Shown here one piece after another: positions 32,045 through 64,000 of a stretch of 64,000 nucleotides of DNA (its first letter is position 1; the number at the start of each line of letters is the position of its first letter). The stretch is from Ostreococcus lucimarinus (taxonomy: Eukaryota), in NCBI GenBank assembly GCA_000092065.1, contig CP000583.1, one strand, 5' to 3'. The position numbers and the translations under genes were made by a program. Below the pieces are notes generated by a model. The model saw only the letters and a list, made by a program, of their open reading frames with translations. It had not been told where the DNA came from and searched no databases.

Positions 32045-35000
32045 CTAGGTCACGTCTACATCAGAGTCTCTACGAGCTTTTTTCCATGCCGGAGACGGAT
32101 CGACGGCGTTCAATAATTCTGAATGCGCCGGTTGCTGTGACGAACGACGCTGCGACATTCGCGGAAGTTCGTTGACGTAAACGTCCAAATCTTCTTCGAT
32201 TTCATCTTCTTCACGGTTGTCGTCTTCGACATAAGGATTCGGAATACCTTTTTCCATGCACTCCACCGCTTGTTTGATGACGGCGAGAACTTCAGCGTTA
32301 TTCTTTTTGATCGCAGTTCTCTCGTTCGCTTTATCGACGCCGCTTTCGATGAACTTTTTCATATCATCAGCAGTGCGCGGTCTTACTTTTTGGAGTAACT
32401 GCAAGAGATTCGGAGGGAATGCGACATCGAGGCTGACTGGTTTGCCCGTCTTCAGCTCTCGCGCATGAGCCATGCGCTTACGCCAAGAGGTCAAAGCTGC
32501 GAACACAGCATTGCGCATGTCTTGCTCCTTCTGGTTGTCCTCGAGCGCATTCGGATTGAGCATGTCAGCCAGGAAGCCATCGACATCGGATTGCGTACCG
32601 GGTTGCGTACTAGGTTGCGTGCCAATAATGACAGTTGTAGTGACCGGAACTTTCTTTCCAGCAGATGCTCGCCTCTTGGTAAACGCCATAGAAAATCTTT
32701 CTCTACCCTGTTGAATCGGTTCGCAGCGGTGTCGTTCGTAGTGAATGGTTGTCACAGTCGTCGCAAATGGTCCAGCTCCTTCACTACGAACGGTTTTCTC
32801 GCTCAAAAAGCCACGCAAAACCATCGCGCGCGCGATTCTTTCCGATTCGGACTTGTCCAAACCTTTGCCTGACCCATAACCAGGTAAGCGGTTGTATTGC
32901 TTCTGAGTCACCGTCTTTGCGCTTGAACCTCTGAATACGTCTACGAGGAGTCCGATACCAATACCCTCTGGAGTAGATTTCACGATGCTGATAATTCCTC
33001 TAGCGTACTCGGTGATGTCTGTTTGCTCGAATTTGACCCCATTGGCTATAGCGTGACACGAGTCACACATGCCTCGACAATGCGAGCGCTCGAACCGTTC
33101 ATCGAAGTGAGCCATCAATTGTGTCCGCCGACAATCCGCCAAATTTTCACAATAAGAGACCATAGTGTTGAGGGACTCTAGATTGTTTTGAAGGACCGCC
33201 GGTTGGGCACGCTCTCTGCGAGCACTATCGATCAACATACTCCTCGCTTTCGACGCGTCGCCCCAAGAGTAAAAGAGAATACACAAACCATGATCACCGT
33301 CGCGTCCAGCACGACCGCTCTCTTGATGATATGCCTCCAGAGATTTAGGCATGCTATGATGAAACACGAATCTAACGTTTGGTTTGTTGATACCCATCCC
33401 AAACGCCACCGTAGCGCAAATAATGTTCACTTCATCTCTTTGCCACATTTCCTGATGCTTCTTCCGCACGTTGTCTGCCAAGCCTGCGTGATAAGGCACG
33501 GCCCGTAGTCGTTTAGGGAATCTCTCGCGGTCTCCCACTGATCGATCAATCTTGTTTAATTCCGTTGCAATTTTTTCGCAGTCGGCTTGACTGAAGCAAT
33601 AAATGATACCGCATTGCACACGATTGTTTCTCATCAGTTTGCGACTCACGATAAGATTTTTTATCTCGTTGACCATTTGCTTACCTTTAAGTTTCGGATG
33701 AACTTCGTACGTCAAATTGGTTCGATTGAATGTATCGAAAAATCGCAAGCACTTTGGTAAGTTTAACTGGCGAACTATGTCATCTTGAACTCTTCGAGTT
33801 GCCGTCGCCGTCAGGCACATGATTGGCGTCGTCGGGAATAAATGTTTCAAACCTCTCAGTTCGGTGTAATCCTTTCTAAAGTCATGTCCCCAAGCACTGA
33901 TACAGTGCGCTTCGTCCAACACAAAGCGATTCAGCATACCTCTCTCATATAATCTCTGCAGAGCAGTCTTTAATTTGCCACTTCGCACTACTTTTTCTGG
34001 AGTGACATATAAGAGTCGAAGCTCGGGCGTAGGTGAGCGAAGATCGTCGTATATCGTATTATCACTGTCCTTTGCAGCAGAAAGCACTGTTGCTGGAATA
34101 CCCATTTCACTCAAGTGGTGCAGCTGATCCTGTATCAATGAAATAAGCGGTGAGATGACCACCGTGATACCGGGCTTGACGACAGCCGGGAGCTGGTAGC
34201 ACAACGATTTGCCTCCGCCAGTGGGCATCAACACGAGGCAGTCTCTCGCGGCCATGGTGGCATTCACCGCGAGCAGTTGTAAACTTCGAAACGACTTCGC
34301 GTTAAACGTGTTGCGAAGAGTCTGTTCGCAGAGTTTGCTCCACTGGAAGTTGGTGTGACCCCAGTCTTTGGCGTCTCCGCCTTTCATCTGACAGTCATTC
34401 ACCACAACATTCGACCCGACATTTACGGCACCAATCCCGTTCATGGGAATCACGACGTCATCACCGATCGGTAAATCGTCGTTCCATCCTGGGAAATCGT
34501 TGGGATCGTCACCCGCGGGAGGTGCCGTCCACGCGCTCGTCGACGGCGCTCCGTACTGGGGCGGCACTTGATGCCGCGGCGCCTCAATCATTCTCGACCC
34601 GTCTACCGGCATCGAATGACTCATCATCGGCGCTGAAGGATGAAAGCTATTTCGACTTCCATCTTCACACACTCGAATGATCGTTTCCGCTTCCATTCTT
34701 TGATAAACCAGAACCTTTCTGTCACTATTCTTCAACGCCACGTCGTCGTCTTCCAATTGGAAAACAATGTTTGCTAACACAGGTCGCAGTTGCTCGATGT
34801 GTGATGCGCGGTGCGAACAAGCATGTAAAGGCACCCCATGCTCGCATCTCCAATCCGCTCCTGAACCATTCAACGGCGGCGCCTGGCATGAGATAGACGG
34901 ACCCGATGGCGGCGCGCGAGACTGTTCCAAAACGCGCGCGCGTGGCGCGCTCATCGGTGCCGGCGTCATCGCTTGCCGCGCGGGAATCGGCGCCATCTGC

Positions 35001-35512
35001 AAGCTCACCGTTACGCTAGAATTCACCGCGTTCAACGAACCCGAGCGTTTGTGCATCATCACCTGTTCCACGTCAATATCCGCCATGATATCGTCGTCGT
35101 CGTCGTCAAACATCAACTCGTCCGCCGTCGAGTTTGCCACGGAAATCGGCGCCGATTTCTCCCCCACATTCCCCTTCCCCGTCTCAACGTTCGCTCGAGC
35201 TGGAACAAGTACACGTTCTCGAATCGTCTCGTTCCCGGATTTCCCATCTCGAACGCTCGATCGACGCGTTCCCGGATCTGGAAGGTTCAAACGCGCGTAC
35301 GGCGTTTTCAAAAAATCAATCACGCTCTGCAATCCTCGATCGTTCAGCGTCGCCGGCGCGAACGCCCCGTCGTCCACGCGCATCCACACTCGCGCATCGC
35401 TCGACGTCGTGTCGTTCAGAGGCGCGGCGAGCGGGTTTTGTCCATCGAGCGAGTACGCGAATCCCTCGCGCGTCGTCGACGCCTCGGCCGTTCGACCGGC
35501 GTCGACGCGCAT
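32045..35512 (-). CDS. RecQ-family DNA helicase (BLM/Sgs1-like) with RQC and HRDC regions
   Basis: Helicase motifs (LVLMPTGGGKSLCYQLPA, DEAHCISAWGHDFR, DEAD-box-like core), an RQC zinc region and a C-terminal HRDC-like stretch. ATG at 35512. Confidence 0.9.
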   Translation of the reverse strand: MRVDAGRTAEASTTREGFAYSLDGQNPLAAPLNDTTSSDARVWMRVDDGAFAPATLNDRGLQSVIDFLKTPYARLNLPDPGTRRSSVRDGKSGNETIRERVLVPARANVETGKGNVGEKSAPISVANSTADELMFDDDDDDIMADIDVEQVMMHKRSGSLNAVNSSVTVSLQMAPIPARQAMTPAPMSAPRARVLEQSRAPPSGPSISCQAPPLNGSGADWRCEHGVPLHACSHRASHIEQLRPVLANIVFQLEDDDVALKNSDRKVLVYQRMEAETIIRVCEDGSRNSFHPSAPMMSHSMPVDGSRMIEAPRHQVPPQYGAPSTSAWTAPPAGDDPNDFPGWNDDLPIGDDVVIPMNGIGAVNVGSNVVVNDCQMKGGDAKDWGHTNFQWSKLCEQTLRNTFNAKSFRSLQLLAVNATMAARDCLVLMPTGGGKSLCYQLPAVVKPGITVVISPLISLIQDQLHHLSEMGIPATVLSAAKDSDNTIYDDLRSPTPELRLLYVTPEKVVRSGKLKTALQRLYERGMLNRFVLDEAHCISAWGHDFRKDYTELRGLKHLFPTTPIMCLTATATRRVQDDIVRQLNLPKCLRFFDTFNRTNLTYEVHPKLKGKQMVNEIKNLIVSRKLMRNNRVQCGIIYCFSQADCEKIATELNKIDRSVGDRERFPKRLRAVPYHAGLADNVRKKHQEMWQRDEVNIICATVAFGMGINKPNVRFVFHHSMPKSLEAYHQESGRAGRDGDHGLCILFYSWGDASKARSMLIDSARRERAQPAVLQNNLESLNTMVSYCENLADCRRTQLMAHFDERFERSHCRGMCDSCHAIANGVKFEQTDITEYARGIISIVKSTPEGIGIGLLVDVFRGSSAKTVTQKQYNRLPGYGSGKGLDKSESERIARAMVLRGFLSEKTVRSEGAGPFATTVTTIHYERHRCEPIQQGRERFSMAFTKRRASAGKKVPVTTTVIIGTQPSTQPGTQSDVDGFLADMLNPNALEDNQKEQDMRNAVFAALTSWRKRMAHARELKTGKPVSLDVAFPPNLLQLLQKVRPRTADDMKKFIESGVDKANERTAIKKNNAEVLAVIKQAVECMEKGIPNPYVEDDNREEDEIEEDLDVYVNELPRMSQRRSSQQPAHSELLNAVDPSPAWKKARRDSDVDVT

Positions 35513-47378: not shown

Positions 47379-47571
47379 CGATCGCGTCTTCGTGTGGCCG
47401 TCGTCGTCGTCGTCGCGTCGCAATCGCCCCAATCATCGCGCGCGCGCGGCGCGCCGCTCGATACGCGCCACACACGGACCCGCGAACACCCGGAAGTAAG
47501 CGGGTCGTTTGAACGACGCGCGCGACGGTCGACGCCGGCGCGGACGCGCGCGCCGCACACGTCGGCCGTCG

Positions 47572-49839
47572 ATGCGCGCGACGCCGGCGACGTCGAGCGC
47601 GACGAGATCGTCGACGACGACGCGCGCGCGGGCGACGAGGACGACGCGAGCGAACGCGCGGGCGCGGGGCGCGCGAGACATGGGACGCGCGCGCGCGGTG
47701 ATGCGGGGACTGGGACGGGCGCGCGCGGTGATGCGGGGCGCGGTGGGCGCGGGAGGAGGCGCGCGGACGGCGACGATCGATGGGACGCGCGCGAACGGGC
47801 GAGGATGGCGCGAGACGGCGGCGAGCGCGAGCGCGAACGCGGTCGCGGGGATGCGGCGGGACGCGAGAGCGCGAGCGGCGAGCGCGTCGACGGCGGCGTC
47901 GGGACGCGAAAGCGGGGACTACGACGCGGGATCGATTCAGGTGTTACAGGGGTTAGAGCCCGTTCGCAAGCGGCCGGGAATGTACATCGGGAGCACGTCT
48001 ACGAAAGGTTTGCACCACTTGGTGTGGGAGGTGTTGGATAACTCCGTGGACGAAGTCCAAGCCGGGCACGCGAGTCACGTCCGAGTGGTCGTGGAAGAAA
48101 ATGGATTCGTCAGCGTCGTGGACGACGGGCGTGGGATTCCCACGGACGTGCACCCGGTCACGGGGAAGAGCTCGTTGGAGACGGTGCTGACGATTTTGCA
48201 CGCCGGTGGTAAGTTTGGCGGCGACAGTAGTGGTTACCACGTATCCGGCGGTCTTCACGGGGTGGGTATTTCCGTCGTGAACGCACTCTCCGAACTCGTC
48301 GAGGTCACGGTTTGGCGTAATGGTAACGAGTACATACAGTCGTTCTCCAGGGGAATCGCTCTCGGACCGATGCAAGAGAAGAAGCAAGACGGCTCCGGGC
48401 AAAAGAAAGGGACGATGATTCGTTTCAAGCCCGACGATCAGATCTTTGACAAAGTGAAGTTTGATCCGACCATCATTCGAACGAGAATGAAGGAATTGGC
48501 CTTCTTGAACAGCGGAACTGAGTTACATTTGCGGACGTTTGACAAGAAGACGAAGGAGTACGAAGACGAAAAGCTCCTCTTCGCAGAGGGATTGAAGGAT
48601 TACGTGTTAGACCTTACATCGGATGCGACGCGTTTGCATGAACCGATCACGTTCAGTGGTACCATGGACGGCGTTCGCGTCGAAGGAGCTCTTTGCTGGA
48701 CTGCAGATTCGTACTCTGACACGCTTTTGGGTTACGCGAATAGTATCCGAACGACCGATGGCGGTACGCACCTCGACGGCTTGAAGTATTCCCTCACGAA
48801 AACGCTCAATGTCGTGAGTCGCAAAGCGAAACTTTTGAAAGACTCCGATCCTAATCTCGGTGGTGATCACATTCGCGAAGGTTTATCCGGTGTCATCGCA
48901 GTTTGGGTGCCCGAGCCTGAATTTGAAGGTCAGACGAAAACACGTTTGGGTAACAGTGAGGTTCGCAGGATCGTTGAAAATATCGCCAACGATGCCGTGG
49001 CCGGTCATATGGAGTTTAATCCGAGTGTTTTGAAGTCTATTTTCGCAAAGGCTCAGTCAGCCTTCAAGGCTGCCGAAGCCGCGAAGCGTGCGCGAGAGAT
49101 GGTTCGCCGAAAGACGGTGCTGACGTCCAACCGCCTACCGGGGAAGCTGTCCGATTGTTCTTCGTCCGACGCTGATCAAACCGAAATCTTCTTAGTCGAA
49201 GGTGACTCAGCTGGTGGAAGCTGTAAGCAAGGTCGGGATCGCGGCTTCCAGGCCGTCTTGCCTCTACGAGGGAAGATTATGAACGTTGAGCGCAAACTTG
49301 ACGCCGCCGCGCTGTACAAGAATACCGAAATCACTAATATGATTTCAGCCCTGGGCTTGGGAGGTATGGGAGAAGATCTGGACACGACCGCTCTTCGGTA
49401 CTCCAAGATCATCATCCTCACCGATGCCGACGTCGACGGTGCGCACATCCGAACGTTGCTGCTTACGTTCTTGTACCGCTATCAGCGAGATTTGTTTGAG
49501 AAAGGATACGTGTACGCCGCCGTCCCACCTCTGTATAAAGTCGTGGTGGGTAAGAAAGAAACGTACTGCTATGATGAAGATGATCTTCAAGAAGTTCTCG
49601 TTTCTTTACCCGAGGGTGGGGCGAAGCACATCCAGCGCTTTAAAGGTCTCGGAGAAATGATGCCAGAGCAACTCTGGTCGACGACTTTAAACCCGAAGAC
49701 TCGCGTTTTGAAGCGTTTAACCGTAGACGACGCGTCCGCGGCAAATCATATGTTTTCTACGCTCATGTCTAAGGATGTCGAGCCGAGAAGAAAACTCATC
49801 ACAGACGAAGGTTCGACGCTAGCGTCGATCGACATATAA
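47572..49839 (+). CDS. gyrB: DNA gyrase subunit B, nuclear-encoded organellar form with a ~130-aa transit-peptide-like extension
   Basis: GHKL ATPase (LHHLVWEVLDNSVDE, GGLHGVG), transducer, TOPRIM (EIFLVEGDSAGGS, ILTDADVDGAHI) and GyrB C-terminal regions. The track start at 47509 is TTG; first ATG at 47572. Confidence 0.9.
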   Translation: MRATPATSSATRSSTTTRARATRTTRANARARGARDMGRARAVMRGLGRARAVMRGAVGAGGGARTATIDGTRANGRGWRETAASASANAVAGMRRDARARAASASTAASGRESGDYDAGSIQVLQGLEPVRKRPGMYIGSTSTKGLHHLVWEVLDNSVDEVQAGHASHVRVVVEENGFVSVVDDGRGIPTDVHPVTGKSSLETVLTILHAGGKFGGDSSGYHVSGGLHGVGISVVNALSELVEVTVWRNGNEYIQSFSRGIALGPMQEKKQDGSGQKKGTMIRFKPDDQIFDKVKFDPTIIRTRMKELAFLNSGTELHLRTFDKKTKEYEDEKLLFAEGLKDYVLDLTSDATRLHEPITFSGTMDGVRVEGALCWTADSYSDTLLGYANSIRTTDGGTHLDGLKYSLTKTLNVVSRKAKLLKDSDPNLGGDHIREGLSGVIAVWVPEPEFEGQTKTRLGNSEVRRIVENIANDAVAGHMEFNPSVLKSIFAKAQSAFKAAEAAKRAREMVRRKTVLTSNRLPGKLSDCSSSDADQTEIFLVEGDSAGGSCKQGRDRGFQAVLPLRGKIMNVERKLDAAALYKNTEITNMISALGLGGMGEDLDTTALRYSKIIILTDADVDGAHIRTLLLTFLYRYQRDLFEKGYVYAAVPPLYKVVVGKKETYCYDEDDLQEVLVSLPEGGAKHIQRFKGLGEMMPEQLWSTTLNPKTRVLKRLTVDDASAANHMFSTLMSKDVEPRRKLITDEGSTLASIDI

Positions 49840-56562: not shown

Positions 56563-57600
56563 ATGGCAGCCCCGGATGGTGCGCGCGAGTTTTACACCGG
56601 GAAGAACGTGTGCGCGCCCATGGTGCGCATCAGCACCCTGGCGACGAGGCTCTTGGCGCACGAATACGGCGCAGACTTGGTGTACGGGGAGGAACTCGTG
56701 GACAAGCGTTTCATGCACTGCAGGCGGATATTAAATAAAGAGCTCGGAAGCGTTGATTTTATCGACGCCAAGGGCACGCTGACATTCCGCACGGTGCCAG
56801 AGGAGCGCGAGCGCGTGGTGTTTCAGGTTGGAACTTCTTCGGCGGCTTCGGCTCTGAAGAGCGCGGAACTCGTCGCCAGGGACGTAGCGGCGATTGACGT
56901 TAATATGGGGTGTCCCAAGCATTTCAGCACGTCCGGTGGGATGGGTGCGAGACTGTTGAGCCAGCCTGAATTGGTAAGAGACATATTGACCACGTTGAGG
57001 AGGAATCTGCCATCGACGACACACGTGACTTGCAAGATACGGCTGCTTGAGAGCGAGAGAGAGACAGCAGAGTTGGCGAAAATGATAGAATCTTGCGGAG
57101 TCTCTGCATTCGCAGTGCACGGCCGTTATATTCCACAGCGTCCACGCGAGCCAGCGCACTGGAATCTTATAAAGAACGTCGTTGAAGCGGTCGACTGTCC
57201 CGTCATTGCAAATGGCGATGTGGAATGTTACGAAGATTTTGCGAGAATTAGAGCCCAAACAGGCGCGGCTAGTGCCATGTGCGCAAGGGGAGCACAGTGG
57301 AACCTTTCGATATTTCGTCCAGAAGGCATGCTACCGATTGATGTGGTAAAAAAGCACTTTGTTCAAAGAGCAATCGAGTATGACAATCCGTGGAACTTTA
57401 CAAAGTTTCAGTTGCGAGAGATTTTAGTTCACAACAAGCGCATGGCTTCTGATGAGGGACAATGTCTCAATAAGTGCAAAACATGGGATGAACTCGCGGA
57501 GCTTTACTCGTTAGAAGACGTGCTGAAGGAGAGCCGAGAGAAGCGTCGGCGAGCCGCACTTCGAGACGACGACGAATACACTGACACCGTTCATCCATAG
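56563..57600 (+). CDS. tRNA-dihydrouridine synthase (Dus family, Dus2-like)
   Basis: A TIM-barrel FMN-binding core (APMVRIS..LVYGEELVD..IDVNMGCPK..AVHGRY..ANGDV). Confidence 0.8.
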   Translation: MAAPDGAREFYTGKNVCAPMVRISTLATRLLAHEYGADLVYGEELVDKRFMHCRRILNKELGSVDFIDAKGTLTFRTVPEERERVVFQVGTSSAASALKSAELVARDVAAIDVNMGCPKHFSTSGGMGARLLSQPELVRDILTTLRRNLPSTTHVTCKIRLLESERETAELAKMIESCGVSAFAVHGRYIPQRPREPAHWNLIKNVVEAVDCPVIANGDVECYEDFARIRAQTGAASAMCARGAQWNLSIFRPEGMLPIDVVKKHFVQRAIEYDNPWNFTKFQLREILVHNKRMASDEGQCLNKCKTWDELAELYSLEDVLKESREKRRRAALRDDDEYTDTVHP

Positions 57601-57653: not shown

Positions 57654-60566
57654 CTACCTCAAATACTGCGCAACACGATGTGCACGCTCGAATATAGGAT
57701 CCAAGAATGCATTGCTTGAGCGGTGGATTTCGCTTATGAAGTGTTGCATGGCGGCCTCATCATCGAGCTCTAACGCGAACTTTGACTCAAATCTAAGCAA
57801 AGCTTTTTCGTAGTCTTGATTTATGTTGATGTCAGGGATATTCGCGTCTGCCATCAGGCTGAAAAGATTCAACAGCAACACCACCGACTCACTCTTTCGT
57901 AAGATGTTGTATGCTTCGCAACAGTAAGTCTTAAACTCACTGAAGTACTCGCCCATCGCTTCGACCATCTCTTTGCAGAGCTTCATCGATGGGGGAGAAA
58001 TCTTTGGATCACGTCCCATGATGAATCCAAAGTCAATGTGAAACAACCTTCCATCTGAGGCCAGCATCAAGTTGTCCAAGTGTCGGTCCCCCACGCCCAG
58101 CAGATACGTAATCACCGAGTACCCAGCACAACTCTTGACGAAGTTCATCATCGATGTCATCGTACATCCGTTCGGGCCGTGCGGGTCGGGATTGTGTAAA
58201 GCTATGTATGTCGTCAGCTTCTCGTGTTCCTTGAGGATGTCAGCAAGCCCTTGGGACTTGACAAACTCAATGAGTCCTGTATCATTTCCAGTGGCGAGTA
58301 CACGGTACGAAGTCAATTTCAAATCAAGATTTTCTCGCTTCAAAAGCTTGTCCATCAATGAAATCATCTGCACGCAGAGTTGATCTTGCCGTAAGTCATC
58401 GCCCTTCTTGAAGATCATCGTTGCGCTGTCCCCGGTGCTGTTGGCGAAATATAATTAATAAAAAAAATAAAGTCGAATGTGAAATAATTACTCACAGCGT
58501 CTGGAACGCGAGCTTCAATGGGCTCAGCGCAGATTTGAAAACATTACTTTCACTGAAACATGAATGATTTAACCACTCGTCGAAAACGTGCAGAAATTGA
58601 GATTTACCTCGCAAGTATGCCAGTCGTCAATACCTGAGCGAAAATTAAATAATTAGACCGTGAGAAGACAAACGAAAGCTCGCAATTCTGAACGTACCGT
58701 CGGATTCAACGGGTTGGGAATGGCCTGAGGGAACGATGTTAACACAGCACCAAGCGTATTGTCACTAGAGAGAATGGCCTGCGAAGTTAATCGCGTCAGC
58801 TCCCGAATATTTAATTAATTCAGAAATAATAATTGAACGTACCCTCAGACGCTCGACTTTACGCGCCCCACGAAGCGTGTTAACTTCTTGAGTAATGATC
58901 TACCCACGTAACGTCAGAAACGAATTAATTCGACGTAATTGATCGAAAACCGTACCGTAATCTTTTCCATCAGTTCCCGCTGGAATTTCAGTGTCTCCCA
59001 AACACTACGTCCTCGTGTATCCTTCGCCCTACTAGCTCGCTCGAACATGCGGAATGCGCTCATGCTACGTTCCGCTGCTAATCCCTCCCATCCAACTTGC
59101 AAGTACCTGCGACAAAACGCGTCAGAACCAATCTTGATACATTTAATTTAATTTAATTAATTCCACGAGGTGGAGTTCTTTGCACTAATACGTACCAGTA
59201 CAAATAGTTCCCGACGACTTCGTTCGCGACTGCGCGTTCGACTAAAAATTTCGCGAGTTCGTTGTCGTCGGCTGTTTCGTAGCGTAACGCCTGTTTGCAT
59301 TTGCGAAGAAAATTTGTTAGTGAACCCATTTAATTTAACACATCGAGCACAGAGCGCACTGAGACATAGAGTATCGACAACATGTGCGCAAACGATCCAT
59401 ACCTGAACTAACTGCAGCAAATATAGCAATAGATCTTCATTCTCAGCTTGTCTCAGGATGGAAACCGCGTAACGACGTACTTCGCTGTTCGAGAAGGTTG
59501 GTGTCAGAAGTTCCAACGCTGCGGCTGGGCCGATGGGCGCCCACTCGCGCATCAGTTGCACTGAGGCCTGCGTTTCAGCCGGATCTGACCAGTCGACACA
59601 CTTAAGGAACTTTGTTAACGCCCTTGGATCGTGACTTATGGCGAATCTAAACTTCCACAGCAAATTTTGCGATTCCATGTCCAGCGGTCGCGTGGGTGGG
59701 AGTTGGATAATTGCCGACAGCCTGCGCTTCTCGGCTCCATCTGGCTTCAACTCCATATCAATAACGCCACGACCGACACTACGCGAAAGCTTTTGATGCT
59801 TACGCTCAGCCGGGTTTTCTAACATCAAATTAACCTCGTCGTCGACGAGCCAAGTCAAGCGCTGCCAACTGTGAATCTCCAGCGGCTCCACGTCTTCTCG
59901 ACGCTCGCGAAAAATCACTGGGCGCACGTACACGGGCAGCTCTACCAAGAGTTGGAAGAAGTCATCAGTCGCCTGGGCTATACGCAACTGCATACTTCGA
60001 GCATCTCGTATGCGAGAAAACACCAAATTATCCAACCAGTTCACCGAAGGCAAAGTTCCTTGCTCATACTGCACCAAGAAACTCTCGAGCTGCTGGAGCT
60101 CCGCCTGTTGCTCCATGAACTTGGCGCCAAGTTGATCGTACTCTTTCTTCGACTCACGAGCCGTCGAGAGCGCTAAACAACGCAAACCTTGTAATAATCG
60201 ATCATCGTCCCCAAAAATATCCACTCGAGAGTATCCCAACACGGTGTTCGGCAACTTTCTCGCCGAAAGTATTCTAAATTCGAGAGACGTCTCACGAGGA
60301 AGATCTCTCACTTTGATGGGAAATCTCAGCTTTTCCTTCCACTCAGCCATTCCATCGGCGTGAACAACCATCGTTGTAGAAACTTCATTCGTAAGAGGTT
60401 CCTCGTTCGACAGCAAACGAGCGCTCACAAGAATTTCACTCTCCACGGTTCCCACTCGCGAGCGAGGCAGTTTGCCGTACAGCGCCTTGACGTGCACGTT
60501 GAAGTCTAACGAGACATCTCTGCTTGAAAAGACCTTCAAGTTCTCATCTTGAACCACGTCGGTCAT
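57654..60566 (-). CDS. VPS34: Phosphatidylinositol 3-kinase class III (Vps34). Eight exons: 59403..60566, 59196..59290, 58956..59106, 58843..58899, 58698..58778, 58608..58633, 58496..58552, 57654..58437
   Basis: Exon 1 carries the C2 and helical (PIK) domains and ends LLLYLLQLVQ. Small exons encode [84 protein letters not shown] and SESNVFKSALSPLKLAFQTL. These are collinear with the human linker ([65 protein letters not shown]). The last exon is the kinase domain (GDDLRQDQL...DRH..DFG). All splice phases are consistent. Donors are GTATGG, GTACGT (x3), GTACGG, GTAAAT and GTGAGT. Confidence 0.75.
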
Positions 60567-60922
60567 CTCGAACGACCTTTTCGCCCCCCAATCGGTTCGC
60601 ACGTGCGCTAATCCACCGACTCGACCGATAACCGAATGTCGTCGGCTTTTGAATCTTCACTCGCGTCCGTCAATCCTGCGTTGCCCGCCGAGTCCGCGTG
60701 GCACACGCTTGAATAACCCACAACGCACTGGTTGCCGTCTCGCTCGCCCGCGCGCGCTCGTGCGGTTGCGCGCAGTCTGCGGTGCGCCAACGCGAACGCG
60801 ACGGGAGGAAAAAAAGCTCAGCGCGTGTGGCGCCAAAATTCCCCAGACGAGAACAGGTCGAGCAGACGCCGCCACACGAGTACGTTCAGACGGCATTCGA
60901 CGGCGTCCGCGACGCTGAGACG

Positions 60923-61972
60923 ATGCTGGCGTGTAACGCATGCTGGTGTGACCTAGACTCTGGATCGGCGTACATCGCGGCGTGCGATCACGTCTTCTGT
61001 GCGTGCGAAAGACGCGTGTGCTCTCGACCTCGACCGTTTAGGTTGCGGTTTTATTCGAATACTTCCCTCGCTCGAAGCGCGCGCATGGCGCGAGTTCGTA
61101 GAATCTGACGACAGTTGATCGACACAGGTGAAAAGGATGTGCACCTCGGCCTCGAGCAGCGACAGTGCGCGGTGTGTGCGACGAAGATGGAAGAGCGAAC
61201 TATTCGAGTCTCGGAAGTTCAACCCGACCTCGGCGAGCTTCAACGCAAGCTGACTGGCCTCAACCCGAACGACATGCTCACCGCCGTTGCGTACGGATTA
61301 AAATTTTGGGACGATCAACTCGAGCTTCGATACAGAACTGAGCTTGAAAAGTCGTTCACGAGCGCGCAAAGAAGCGCTGAGATGTACAAGAGGAAACTTC
61401 AGGTGTGTCGTCGCCTCTTGAAACGCCACATGCCATGCAAACTAACCTGATCGCACCTCCAGGACGTGCACAACGCTTATAAGAGAGCCAAGACGAAACA
61501 AGATGAACTTGCCGCTCAGTTAAAGGAACGAGAGAATGATATTGAAGAGTTACAGCATCGCTACGAAGAGAAGAGCAGAGAGAAGCGTCGTTTGGAAGAT
61601 TCAGCTGGAAGAGGCAGACCGAGCCTGGGACCACAGTTTCAGGCACGCACGGCACCTATGATGCCAGAGACTGCGGGTCGAATCGATACTCGAGGTCGTA
61701 CCGAACCTGATGGTTGGCTGCAACAACAACGGGTCTCGTCTAGCGAACTCCGCAGTCATCGTAGCTCCGAGCAACTTCACAGGAATTTACCGCAGCGTCG
61801 CACCAGTCTCACGCGCAGTTTCGACAGCGGATTGACACCTCCATCAAATTCACGCGACTCACACGAGCGCACATTTCGAGCTCTTTCTCCGTACACGCGT
61901 CAGGCAGTCGAACCACCTTCTCGGCCCGGACGTGATTCCGTCGGACTGTTCTCGAAACGACGCATATTCTGA
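60923..61972 (+). CDS. HEI10: HEI10/CCNB1IP1-like RING E3 ligase (meiotic crossover factor family). Three exons: 60923..60998, 61128..61402, 61463..61972
   Basis: The N-terminal MLACNACWCDLDSGSAYIAACDHVFC matches HEI10 (LLCNYRKCRIKLSGYAWVTACSHIFC). The second Cys pair QCAVCAT and a coiled-coil middle region are also present. Introns are 129 bp (GTGCGT..CTGAC..CAG) and 60 bp (GTGTGT..CTAAC..CAG). The spliced product is ~287 aa against 277 aa for human HEI10. Confidence 0.55.
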
Positions 61973-62129: not shown

Positions 62130-62843
62130 TTATCGCCCGATGATACTCTGCGCCGCCACGTTGAGGCCCGAAAGTAGGGCGCCACCAGCACCATACACCG
62201 CTACAGCGCGAGGACCACTCATACTTTTGTAAAGTGCCCCTGCACCTCCGCCTGCGAATATGGAGCACAGGGAATCGTGCCGATTTTCCAAGTACGCCAT
62301 CGAGGCGCTTTCGAGAGCGGCGTAATACAAGCCGAGGCAACCCAAGGTGTTCCCCATCGATCGTCCTCTTTGACTTACGGCGTTGAGCATTCTATTCAAT
62401 CGCAACTTGGACGTGTCCAAAGCCGGTTCCGGTGCGGCTTTCATGCTCCCGTATAACCCCCACCCTCCGCCGGCGATGCTTCCACCGAGGTATCCAACCC
62501 CGGTCAGGTACGTCAGGTTTTCACTCCAGCTTCGCGTCTTCACCGTGCGCTCTTCATCGAATAAGAACTCAGGTGTATCCGATAACGCATAAATCGCCTT
62601 ATTCATCGACGGATCGAAAGGCCCACCCAATCCGCTATACGGATTGTACGCCCCGCTCGCCCCGCTCGGCAGCGCCAGGCTCTCCGCCGGCGCCCCGAAG
62701 TTTGGCTGCTCTATGTTCTCGTTCAGCGCGCTCGTCGTCACCGCGCCTCCGTTGGGTTCATCCAACGTCTTTGCCCCGCTCGATGACGCTTCGTTCTTGT
62801 TCTTTTCACCCCTTCGCACGCTCAACAAGTCTCGAAGACCCAT
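62130..62843 (-). CDS. TIM23: Mitochondrial inner-membrane translocase subunit TIM23 (Tim17/22/23 family)
   Basis: An N-terminal IMS region and the Tim17-family core (GVGYLGGSIAGGGWGLYGS...MGNTLGCLGLYYAALES...GAGGALLSG). ATG at 62843. Confidence 0.7.
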   Translation of the reverse strand: MGLRDLLSVRRGEKNKNEASSSGAKTLDEPNGGAVTTSALNENIEQPNFGAPAESLALPSGASGAYNPYSGLGGPFDPSMNKAIYALSDTPEFLFDEERTVKTRSWSENLTYLTGVGYLGGSIAGGGWGLYGSMKAAPEPALDTSKLRLNRMLNAVSQRGRSMGNTLGCLGLYYAALESASMAYLENRHDSLCSIFAGGGAGALYKSMSGPRAVAVYGAGGALLSGLNVAAQSIIGR

Positions 62844-62942
62844 GATTCCACGCCAGACTCGCGATCGGCGCCGACGCGCGTCCGTCCTTTAATCGGTTTC
62901 CGTCGCGCGCGTCGGTCGCGTCGCGCGCGTCGGTCGCCGTTC

Positions 62943-63006
62943 GTCGCGTCGCGCGCGCGTTCGAGTCGCGCCTCGTCGCGTCGCGCGCGCGTTCGAGTCG
63001 CGCCTC
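62943..63006. repeat. Tandem duplication of a 32-bp GC-rich unit (CGTCGCGTCGCGCGCGCGTTCGAGTCGCGCCT x2)
   Basis: Seen directly in the sequence, inside a CpG-rich spacer upstream of TIM23. Confidence 0.8.
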
Positions 63007-63361
63007 GTCGCGGCTCGGCGCGCGTCGTCTTCAGACGACGAAAGATGTCGACGATGATTTTCCGCGCCCACCGCGAGGGTCTGGCGCTCGCGCGGGTTCG
63101 GTCCGCCCGGGCGCGACCTTTTCGGGACGGCGGCCCGCGTCGACTTTTACCGCGCGCAGAGGGCGACGCGGCGACGCGACCGCGACCGCGCGTCGACCGA
63201 GGGACGCCCGACCGCGGTCGGCGATGCGCGCGGTGGCGCCCGCGCCGAACGCGCGCGCGCGACGCGAGGCGACGACGCGGCGCGCGGGCGGTCGCCGCGC
63301 GCGATGGGGCGACGAGCGACGACCGCGCGCGAGTGCCGCGAGCGCGCGAACGGCGTGGACG

Positions 63362-64000
63362 ATGGGGATGAGTGAAAAGACATCGACGACGCGCGCGCGG
63401 CGATCGCGAGGAGACGGCGCGACGGAGACGCGAGCGCGGTGGACGTCGGCGCGCGCGGCGAACAAAGGGTGGGTGCTCTCCGAACGGGACTACCCCGAGG
63501 GAGAAGTGATCTTGGGGATCGAGATTCGATCGCATTCCATAAAAGCCGCACCAGTGGATACCGCGAACGCCGAGTTTCAGCGACCGGGGGTGTCGGTGCC
63601 GATCGAAGAATTCAACGAAGAAAGCTTGCGAGAGGCGCTCGAGAAGGTTAACAAACACTTTGGCTGGAGAGGGCCGGTGGGTGTAAGCTACACTCGTTTA
63701 GCCGTGCGCGCGCTCGGAGGCGTGCAAAAGGGAGAACAGCTGATGTCTAGGATGATTCCCGATTGGCAAGGACGAATCGCCATGATGATTCACACCGAGG
63801 CGGCGGCGTATGCGGAGATGTATTTCGGCCCAGGTCGCGAGAGCTCGGGCGTGGTGCTTGTGTGTACGCTCGGCAAAGGATTCGGTGCGGTGCTGTACAA
63901 ACGAGGTCAAAAAGTTCGAAACGCTGACTTCAAGCACATGACGTGGACGTACGAAAGGGAGCTCCAGAAATTACAAAAGACGTGGGGCTGGAGCGGCGTG
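63362..64000 (+). CDS. ROK/BadF-type sugar kinase-like protein (glucokinase-like), 5' part; continues past the window end
   Basis: Hand translation gives an open frame from ATG 63362 to base 64000. It has an Arg-rich presequence followed by VILGIEIRSHSIKAAPVD (like an ATP-binding phosphate-1 loop) and GVVLVCTLGKGFGAVLYKRG (like phosphate-2/adenosine). It is absent from the ORF track because no stop lies inside the window. Confidence 0.35.
   Translation, partial: MGMSEKTSTTRARRSRGDGATETRARWTSARAANKGWVLSERDYPEGEVILGIEIRSHSIKAAPVDTANAEFQRPGVSVPIEEFNEESLREALEKVNKHFGWRGPVGVSYTRLAVRALGGVQKGEQLMSRMIPDWQGRIAMMIHTEAAAYAEMYFGPGRESSGVVLVCTLGKGFGAVLYKRGQKVRNADFKHMTWTYERELQKLQKTWGWSGV

Follow-up and report, generated by a model that had tools for sequence, protein, structure and literature searches.

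A three-exon gene model restores the RING domain to the HEI10/CCNB1IP1-family protein of Ostreococcus lucimarinus

Arabidopsis HEI10 is a ZMM protein needed for class I crossovers, and the loss-of-function phenotype in plants is meiotic (PMC3405992). Human CCNB1IP1/HEI10 has a rod-like tetrameric core of 29 nm, formed by two parallel coiled-coil dimers joined head to head via L86 and L93; the helix is capped by P82, itself packed on W96, residues 70-75 form a linker helix that interlocks between the opposing chains, F95 and Y98 keep the RING against the coil, and the tail, together with a conserved basic C-terminal tip, drives the higher-order (fibre) assembly required for K63-linked ubiquitin chains (PMC13174674, a 2026 preprint). 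The Arabidopsis core is likewise a 29-nm tetramer, and in mammals RNF212 and RNF212B act upstream of HEI10 (PMC13174674). According to a survey of meiotic genes, every major plant lineage has conserved the ZMM pathway, including HEI10; supplementary file 2 of that survey places XP_001416621.1 in the HEI10 column for Ostreococcus lucimarinus and gives XP_022838471.1 as the O. tauri HEI10 (Thangavel et al. 2023; PMC9957857). In this study, we examined a stretch of 64,000 nucleotides from O. lucimarinus (contig CP000583.1, assembly GCA_000092065.1; hereafter the window), in which a first-pass annotation, made from the sequence alone, had proposed a HEI10/CCNB1IP1-like meiotic RING ligase assembled from three exons. 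The HEI10 identity of this locus is thus already known; what is new is a corrected 5' exon that restores the RING.

The gene occupies 60923-61972 on the plus strand, where an in-frame coding sequence of 861 nt, spliced from three exons, encodes a protein of 286 residues (table 1). These are exactly the coordinates and the exon assembly of the first-pass annotation, and both splice sites and comparative data uphold them. The ATG at 60923 is the earliest of its frame following the upstream stop, the TGA lies at 61970-61972, and the frame opened by this ATG, if left unspliced, meets a stop at 61108, within intron 1. Both introns are of the GT..AG type: intron 1 (GTGCGT...CTGAC...CAG) splits the codon of Cys26, and intron 2 (GTGTGT...CTAAC...CAG) falls between Gln117 and Asp118. 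The RefSeq protein XP_001416621.1 (P0063; 241 aa, deposited as 'predicted protein') coincides exactly with residues 46-286 of the three-exon product; it starts at Met46 (61187) and therefore lacks exon 1 and the entire RING, the part of a RING E3 in which catalysis resides. The published HEI10 assignment rests on this RING-less entry (PMC9957857), and the JGI/IMG label on the exon 3 open reading frame (ORF) reads 'E3 ubiquitin-protein ligase CCNP1IP1'.

Support for the splicing comes from three Ostreococcus-like metagenome loci, L001, L005 (O. tauri-like) and L007, which together with the window make up four lineages. The gene order Vps34 - HEI10 gene - Tim17-family gene is kept in all three. 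At the nucleotide level, exon 1 (74-76% identity to the window) and exon 2 (72-81%) align without gaps; identity in intron 1 is 26-53% and in intron 2 38-41%, both with many indels, and just upstream of the ATG it is only 30-44%, with many gaps. Intron 1 sits at the same position in the three loci, and, despite their divergence, the introns of the four lineages retain at matching positions a GT donor, a branch-point-like CTGAC/CTAAC/CTGAT and an AG acceptor. Applied to all four loci, the three-exon model gives intact products of 286-289 aa. Differences from the window in exons 1 and 2 number 58, 41 and 50 at codon position 3 in the three lineages, against 24/16, 18/11 and 18/10 at positions 1/2. 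Metagenomic ORFs of further lineages retain MLACN.CWC...CDHV[FY]C and diverge exactly at the intron 1 donor, and P0078, a more distant metagenomic homologue, carries the whole RING in a single uninterrupted ORF, collinear with the spliced product. At the level of sequence, and short of cDNA, the three-exon model is established, and by the same comparison it corrects the 5' end of XP_001416621.1 and restores the RING; the substitutions and the gene order likewise show a gene under purifying selection, in a synteny (Vps34 - HEI10 - Tim23) conserved across Ostreococcus lineages.

The O. tauri orthologue has been deposited in a form that is also defective. The O. tauri-like L005 locus has the same synteny and the same intron positions as O. 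lucimarinus; the deposited protein OUS43796.1 (P0068), named 'putative bZIP protein' and 64% identical to the window protein over its full length, differs in having insertions at both intron positions. When compared with the spliced product of L005 (L005:1612-3225), it shows in-frame insertions of 20 aa and 9 aa exactly at these two positions, and beyond them the two sequences differ by five substitutions. Partial retention of intron sequence by the gene model is the probable origin of both insertions.

One protein, P0003, seemed to derive from an intron-less copy; it carries an in-frame deletion instead, and the Tara Oceans record is labelled marine metagenome (PRJEB4352), which we take as DNA. 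The locus L009:1-817, from a related lineage (ERR868389, PRJEB4352; again a marine metagenome, taken as Tara Oceans DNA), has the 3' end of intron 1; missing from it, in frame, are intron 2 and some 21 coiled-coil codons. In it, Cys replaces Asp at the variable sixth ligand position of the RING (EKCVV vs EKDVH). L009 may represent a true deletion variant, or else an error of assembly.

The assignment to the HEI10 family was approached by sequence, profile and fold. A phmmer search of all PDB chains returned human CCNB1IP1/HEI10 (9ges) as the sole significant RING match (E = 1.3e-7, residues 1-162), with an alignment spanning RING and coiled coil; the next RING match has an E-value of at least 4.7. 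The family profile A1, from an alignment of 25 sequences, matched 9ges at 1.2e-39 (140.6 bits), followed by RNF4 at 2e-12, over the RING only. BLASTP against Arabidopsis HEI10 (F4HRI2; sequence taken from PMC9957857) gave 2e-20 over residues 2-163, with 23% identity over 167 residues. An exhaustive phmmer/HMMER search of 1.84 billion representative proteins yielded 146 matches at E<=1e-3, many of them proteins of about 300 aa aligned over their first 165 or so residues. The best distant matches lie in Viridiplantae and Amoebozoa. The named sources are, in Viridiplantae, ferns, a lycophyte, Mesostigma, Spirogloea, Chloropicon, Edaphochlamys, Haematococcus and Neomeris, and, for the remainder, Amoebozoa, with a Balamuthia protein named 'cyclin B1 interacting protein 1, E3 ubiquitin protein ligase'. 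A word-indexed profile search with alignment A1 returned 7 proteins only and no further information. HEI10/CCNB1IP1 membership, as first proposed, is borne out by these matches and by the fold, and the locus is almost certainly the O. lucimarinus orthologue in the HEI10 family.

Within the 25-sequence alignment, which includes the window protein, C4, N5, C7, C21, H23, C26, C39 and C42 are invariant, as are G69, F85 and Q89, and P72 is conserved in at least 90% of sequences, giving the family signature CNxCW...CxHxFC...CPxC...GLxP...FWxxQ. The motifs first quoted for the RING (C4-N-A-C7, AYIAAC21-D-H23-VF-C26 and C39-AV-C42) are all present; the half encoded by exon 2 supplies the ligands C26, D29/H31, C39 and C42. 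At the start of its coiled coil, the window protein reads G69-L-x-P72...L76...L83-x-F85-W86-x-x-Q89. In the AlphaFold2 model, the predicted local distance difference test score (pLDDT) exceeds 90 over residues 1-165, that is, the RING, the linker helix and one single helix, and the predicted helices fall at positions matching those of human HEI10. The collinear N-terminal RING, the total length and the coiled-coil middle thus fit the family as had been claimed. Foldseek against the PDB ranked two 9ges chains best (E = 3.6e-6, probability 1.00, target-normalised template modelling score 0.59-0.60), and the next match reached only E = 0.016. The tail is rich in Arg (17%), Ser (14%) and Pro (10%), and the protein ends in SKRRIF; the tip is [L/M]F[A]SKRR[I/V/A]F in orthologues and FRASK[R/K]RIF in Chloropicon-type homologues.

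Table 1. Features of the HEI10 gene, its product and the flanking genes in the window.
Feature	Coordinates	Strand	Content or basis
Upstream intergenic region, shared with the divergent Vps34-type PI3-kinase gene	60603..60922	.	PI3-kinase ORF start at 60602 (-)
Exon 1	60923..60998	+	Met1-Phe25 and first base of the Cys26 codon; first half of RING (C4, C7, C21, H23)
Intron 1	60999..61127	+	129 nt, GT(60999)..AG(61127), phase 1
Exon 2	61128..61402	+	Rest of Cys26 to Gln117; second half of RING, linker helix, start of coiled coil
Met46 codon, start of RefSeq XP_001416621.1	61187..61189	+	RefSeq protein = residues 46-286
Intron 2	61403..61462	+	60 nt, GT(61403)..AG(61462), phase 0; same intron in the RefSeq model
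Exon 3	61463..61972	+	Asp118-Phe286 and TGA; remaining coiled coil and disordered tail
RING domain, residues 4-42, split by intron 1	60932..61177	+	Pfam, family alignment, pLDDT 93-98
Linker helix, residues 60-67	61229..61252	+	AlphaFold2; counterpart of human HEI10 linker helix 70-75
Pro-capped coiled-coil helix, residues 72-165, split by intron 2	61265..61606	+	AlphaFold2, single helix
Disordered Arg/Ser/Pro-rich C-terminal tail, residues 166-286	61607..61969	+	pLDDT 45-59
Basic C-terminal tip GLFSKRRIF	61943..61969	+	Kept in orthologues
Vps34-type PI3-kinase, divergent from the HEI10 gene	59157-60602 and 57654-58418	-	Two long ORFs
Tim23	62130-62843	-	Exact match to UniRef entry of Ostreococcus sp. 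'lucimarinus'
Dus-family ORF	56563-57600		Exact match to XP_001416620.1

Set beside Arabidopsis thaliana HEI10 (At1g53490, F4HRI2), the algal protein has the same start (M-x-C-N-A-C-W), equal RING spacing, including an Asp at the sixth-ligand position, a coiled coil that opens with GxxP...F[WY]xxQ and closes with an EKSR[QE]KRxL motif, a comparable length (304 vs 286 aa), a disordered tail and a host of the green lineage. The sequences of the tails, however, are unrelated: plants end in ...LRNLILSPIKR... and Ostreococcus in ...LFSKRRIF, which is nearer to the human and Chloropicon-type tips than to the plant tail end. Human CCNB1IP1, a protein of 277 aa and thus of similar length, is the best match by sequence, profile and fold, shares the basic C-terminal tip, and has in its core residues P82, L86, L93, F95 and W96 the counterparts of algal P72, L76, L83, F85 and W86; it differs in its first ligand pair, C-x4-C, from the C-x2-C of the alga and of most family members. 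HEIP1, the plant partner of HEI10, has not been detected in chlorophytes (PMC9957857).

The conserved core residues are suggestive of a shared rod-like homotetramer with clustered RINGs. By analogy with the described proteins, two parallel coiled-coil dimers of the algal protein would associate head to head, forming a rod-like tetramer with four RINGs clustered at its centre, and the disordered tail would drive higher-order self-assembly into foci. The assembled protein could then catalyse ubiquitin chain formation at recombination sites, an E3 activity coupled to assembly, by which ZMM intermediates would be stabilized and class I crossovers designated, during a cryptic meiosis. On the same analogy, the protein probably acts as a meiotic pro-crossover ligase.

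Several observations weigh against a HEI10 of canonical make-up and function. The Pfam match to zf-RING_5 (E = 2.8e-6), next to which all other matches are coiled-coil noise, scores 27.6 bits against a gathering cutoff of 27.9, that is, 0.3 below it. At the sixth zinc ligand position there is no conserved Cys; D29 or H31 would serve, as in plant and human HEI10. Some human interface residues differ in the alga, which has E62, K66 and D88 in place of Y72, V76 and Y98, respectively. Oligomeric state, ligase activity and meiotic role are extrapolated from the human and Arabidopsis proteins, and, to our knowledge, nobody has yet observed meiosis in Ostreococcus. Database proteins were examined for a spliced copy of the product derived from a transcript, and none was found: no such copy was seen among 40/59 cluster members, and the exact 286-aa product is absent from a collection of 15 billion proteins. 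Tim23 and Dus, encoded next to the gene, are represented in the transcript-derived sets of MMETSP and Tara, and the absence of the HEI10 product from such sets fits, as weak evidence, low or no vegetative expression. Finally, MSH4 and ZYP1 were not detected in O. tauri or O. lucimarinus, MSH5 being present (PMC9957857).

A Zip3/RNF212-type SUMO ligase would have the same architecture of RING, coiled coil and Ser-rich tail and the same Pfam match to zf-RING_5, and the HEI10 and Zip3/RNF212 groups detect each other reciprocally at weak E-values (PMC3405992). Yet a HEI10-like profile that excludes the window protein, although assembled from hits to it, and that is validated by independent HEI10 proteins, gives the window protein 148.9 bits, Arabidopsis HEI10 234 and RNF212 proteins only 14-15, whereas an RNF212 profile, made of mammalian sequences only and thus leaving yeast Zip3 and nematode ZHP proteins outside the comparison, gives 5.4 and -3.7 bits to the first two and 436-497 to RNF212 proteins. 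The similarity to RNF212 is marginal, the signature CNxCW...GLxP...FWxxQ is of HEI10 type, and the RING, on these profiles, does not group with another RING family; a SUMO ligase of the RNF212 type is, in consequence, very improbable. Equally improbable is that the RefSeq model is right, with a start at Met46, a RING-less product and an 'exon 1' that is non-coding. It has in its favour that XP_001416621.1 is the deposited model, but the four lineages align without gaps over exon 1 and the opening 59 nt of exon 2, with changes mostly at third positions, and conservation collapses upstream of the ATG and within intron 1; moreover, the 45 additional residues supply exactly the seven invariant Cys/His residues of the family, and intron-less homologues encode the N-terminal RING region contiguously. 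A gene in decay after the loss of the sexual cycle might be suspected, given that sex is unobserved and that the reference annotations are poor (the truncated O. lucimarinus model, the O. tauri 'putative bZIP protein'). Intact ORFs, conserved splice sites and third-position-biased substitutions across four diverged lineages speak against it and make it the least credible explanation of all. Both the pseudogene and the RING-less RefSeq model were rejected on these comparative grounds.

The foremost alternative, though an unlikely one, is that the gene is a HEI10 orthologue by descent with a non-meiotic role, for instance in cyclin B/cell-cycle control or in general DNA repair, in which case its presence would say little about sex. 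The name CCNB1IP1 itself reflects a reported interaction with cyclin B1, the first role proposed for the human protein, and the unobserved meiosis, like the MSH4 and ZYP1 missing from the published survey (PMC9957857), would be in keeping with it. Against this, the plant HEI10 loss-of-function phenotype is meiotic (PMC3405992), and most of the remaining ZMM/meiotic set was found in O. lucimarinus (PMC9957857). Weak evidence in the same direction is the absence of the product from vegetative-culture transcript sets that hold the neighbour proteins. In mammals and in Sordaria, too, the phenotype of HEI10 loss is meiotic. Overall, a HEI10/CCNB1IP1 orthologue, a RING-type E3 ligase belonging to the ZMM pathway of class I crossovers, is very probably the explanation of this locus.

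The window lies, as the first-pass annotation had supposed from the letters alone, in a unicellular alga, O. lucimarinus (strain CCE9901, to which XP_001416620.1 belongs, or one nearly identical), and a HEI10-family gene in such a host is real; its significance had been overstated, given that both this locus and Ostreococcus meiotic genes had already been published. MutS-gamma is normally a heterodimer of MSH4 and MSH5. Meiosis-specific genes were reported from the O. tauri genome in 2006, as cited in PMC2488364, and population-genetic evidence of recombination is credited to Grimsley et al. (2010) where PMC11603280 and PMC6731263 cite it. For O. lucimarinus, the published survey lists, besides HEI10, ASY1, DMC1, HOP2, MER3, MLH1, MLH3, MND1, MSH5, PCH2, REC8, SHOC1, SPO11-2 and ZIP4, and marks SPO11-1 as not detected (PMC9957857). 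With MSH4 and ZYP1 undetected there, the ZMM pathway context is therefore incomplete, and the missing half of the MSH4-MSH5 heterodimer points either to a detection failure or to an unusual ZMM set. It is more likely that the two non-detections are search failures for fast-evolving proteins. The other possibility, that a complete HEI10 with RING, tetramer core and basic tip, maintained by selection, designates crossovers without MSH4 and the transverse-filament protein ZYP1, in the absence of a canonical MutS-gamma or synaptonemal complex, we consider improbable; if true, HEI10-based designation would be operating in a minimal eukaryote that lacks both the canonical heterodimer and the synaptonemal complex.

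The window as a whole is very gene-dense, with about 58% G+C and chiefly long uninterrupted ORFs. The intergenic region between the HEI10 gene and the divergent Vps34-type PI3-kinase is presumed to contain a promoter acting in both directions, together with the 5' untranslated region. The PI3-kinase is split into an ORF with the C2 and accessory domains and another with the kinase domain, about 740 nt apart; the same split into two ORFs is present in the related loci, and the gap implies one or more introns or an unrecognized middle exon. Upstream of Tim23, at 62906-63029 and 63221-63434, lie GC-rich imperfect tandem repeats, CGCG-rich and with units of 9-64 nt. An ORF of 278 aa that overlaps them (62822-63658, minus strand) has no match in Pfam and probably does not represent a gene. 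Some 26 kb from HEI10, an ORF of 1155 aa (32045-35512, minus strand) encodes a RecQ-family helicase (DEAD, Helicase_C, RecQ_Zn_bind and RQC domains), a family that includes the anti-crossover helicases BLM/Sgs1/RECQ4; a guess, from RefSeq accession numbering, that this ORF was the SHOC1 of the survey was ruled out by its Pfam domains. At 47509-49839 (plus strand) there is a complete DNA gyrase B ORF (HATPase_c, DNA_gyraseB, Toprim and C-terminal domains), presumably a nuclear-encoded organellar gyrase subunit. An Rfam scan of the window gave no matches.

The significance of the corrected model is slight beyond annotation hygiene, since the Ostreococcus meiotic toolkit and this HEI10 locus were known before. 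Nonetheless, any phylogeny, structure prediction or expression construct using XP_001416621.1 or OUS43796.1 would start from a defective sequence. The corrected 286-aa model indicates that the full HEI10 architecture is kept in the smallest free-living eukaryotes.

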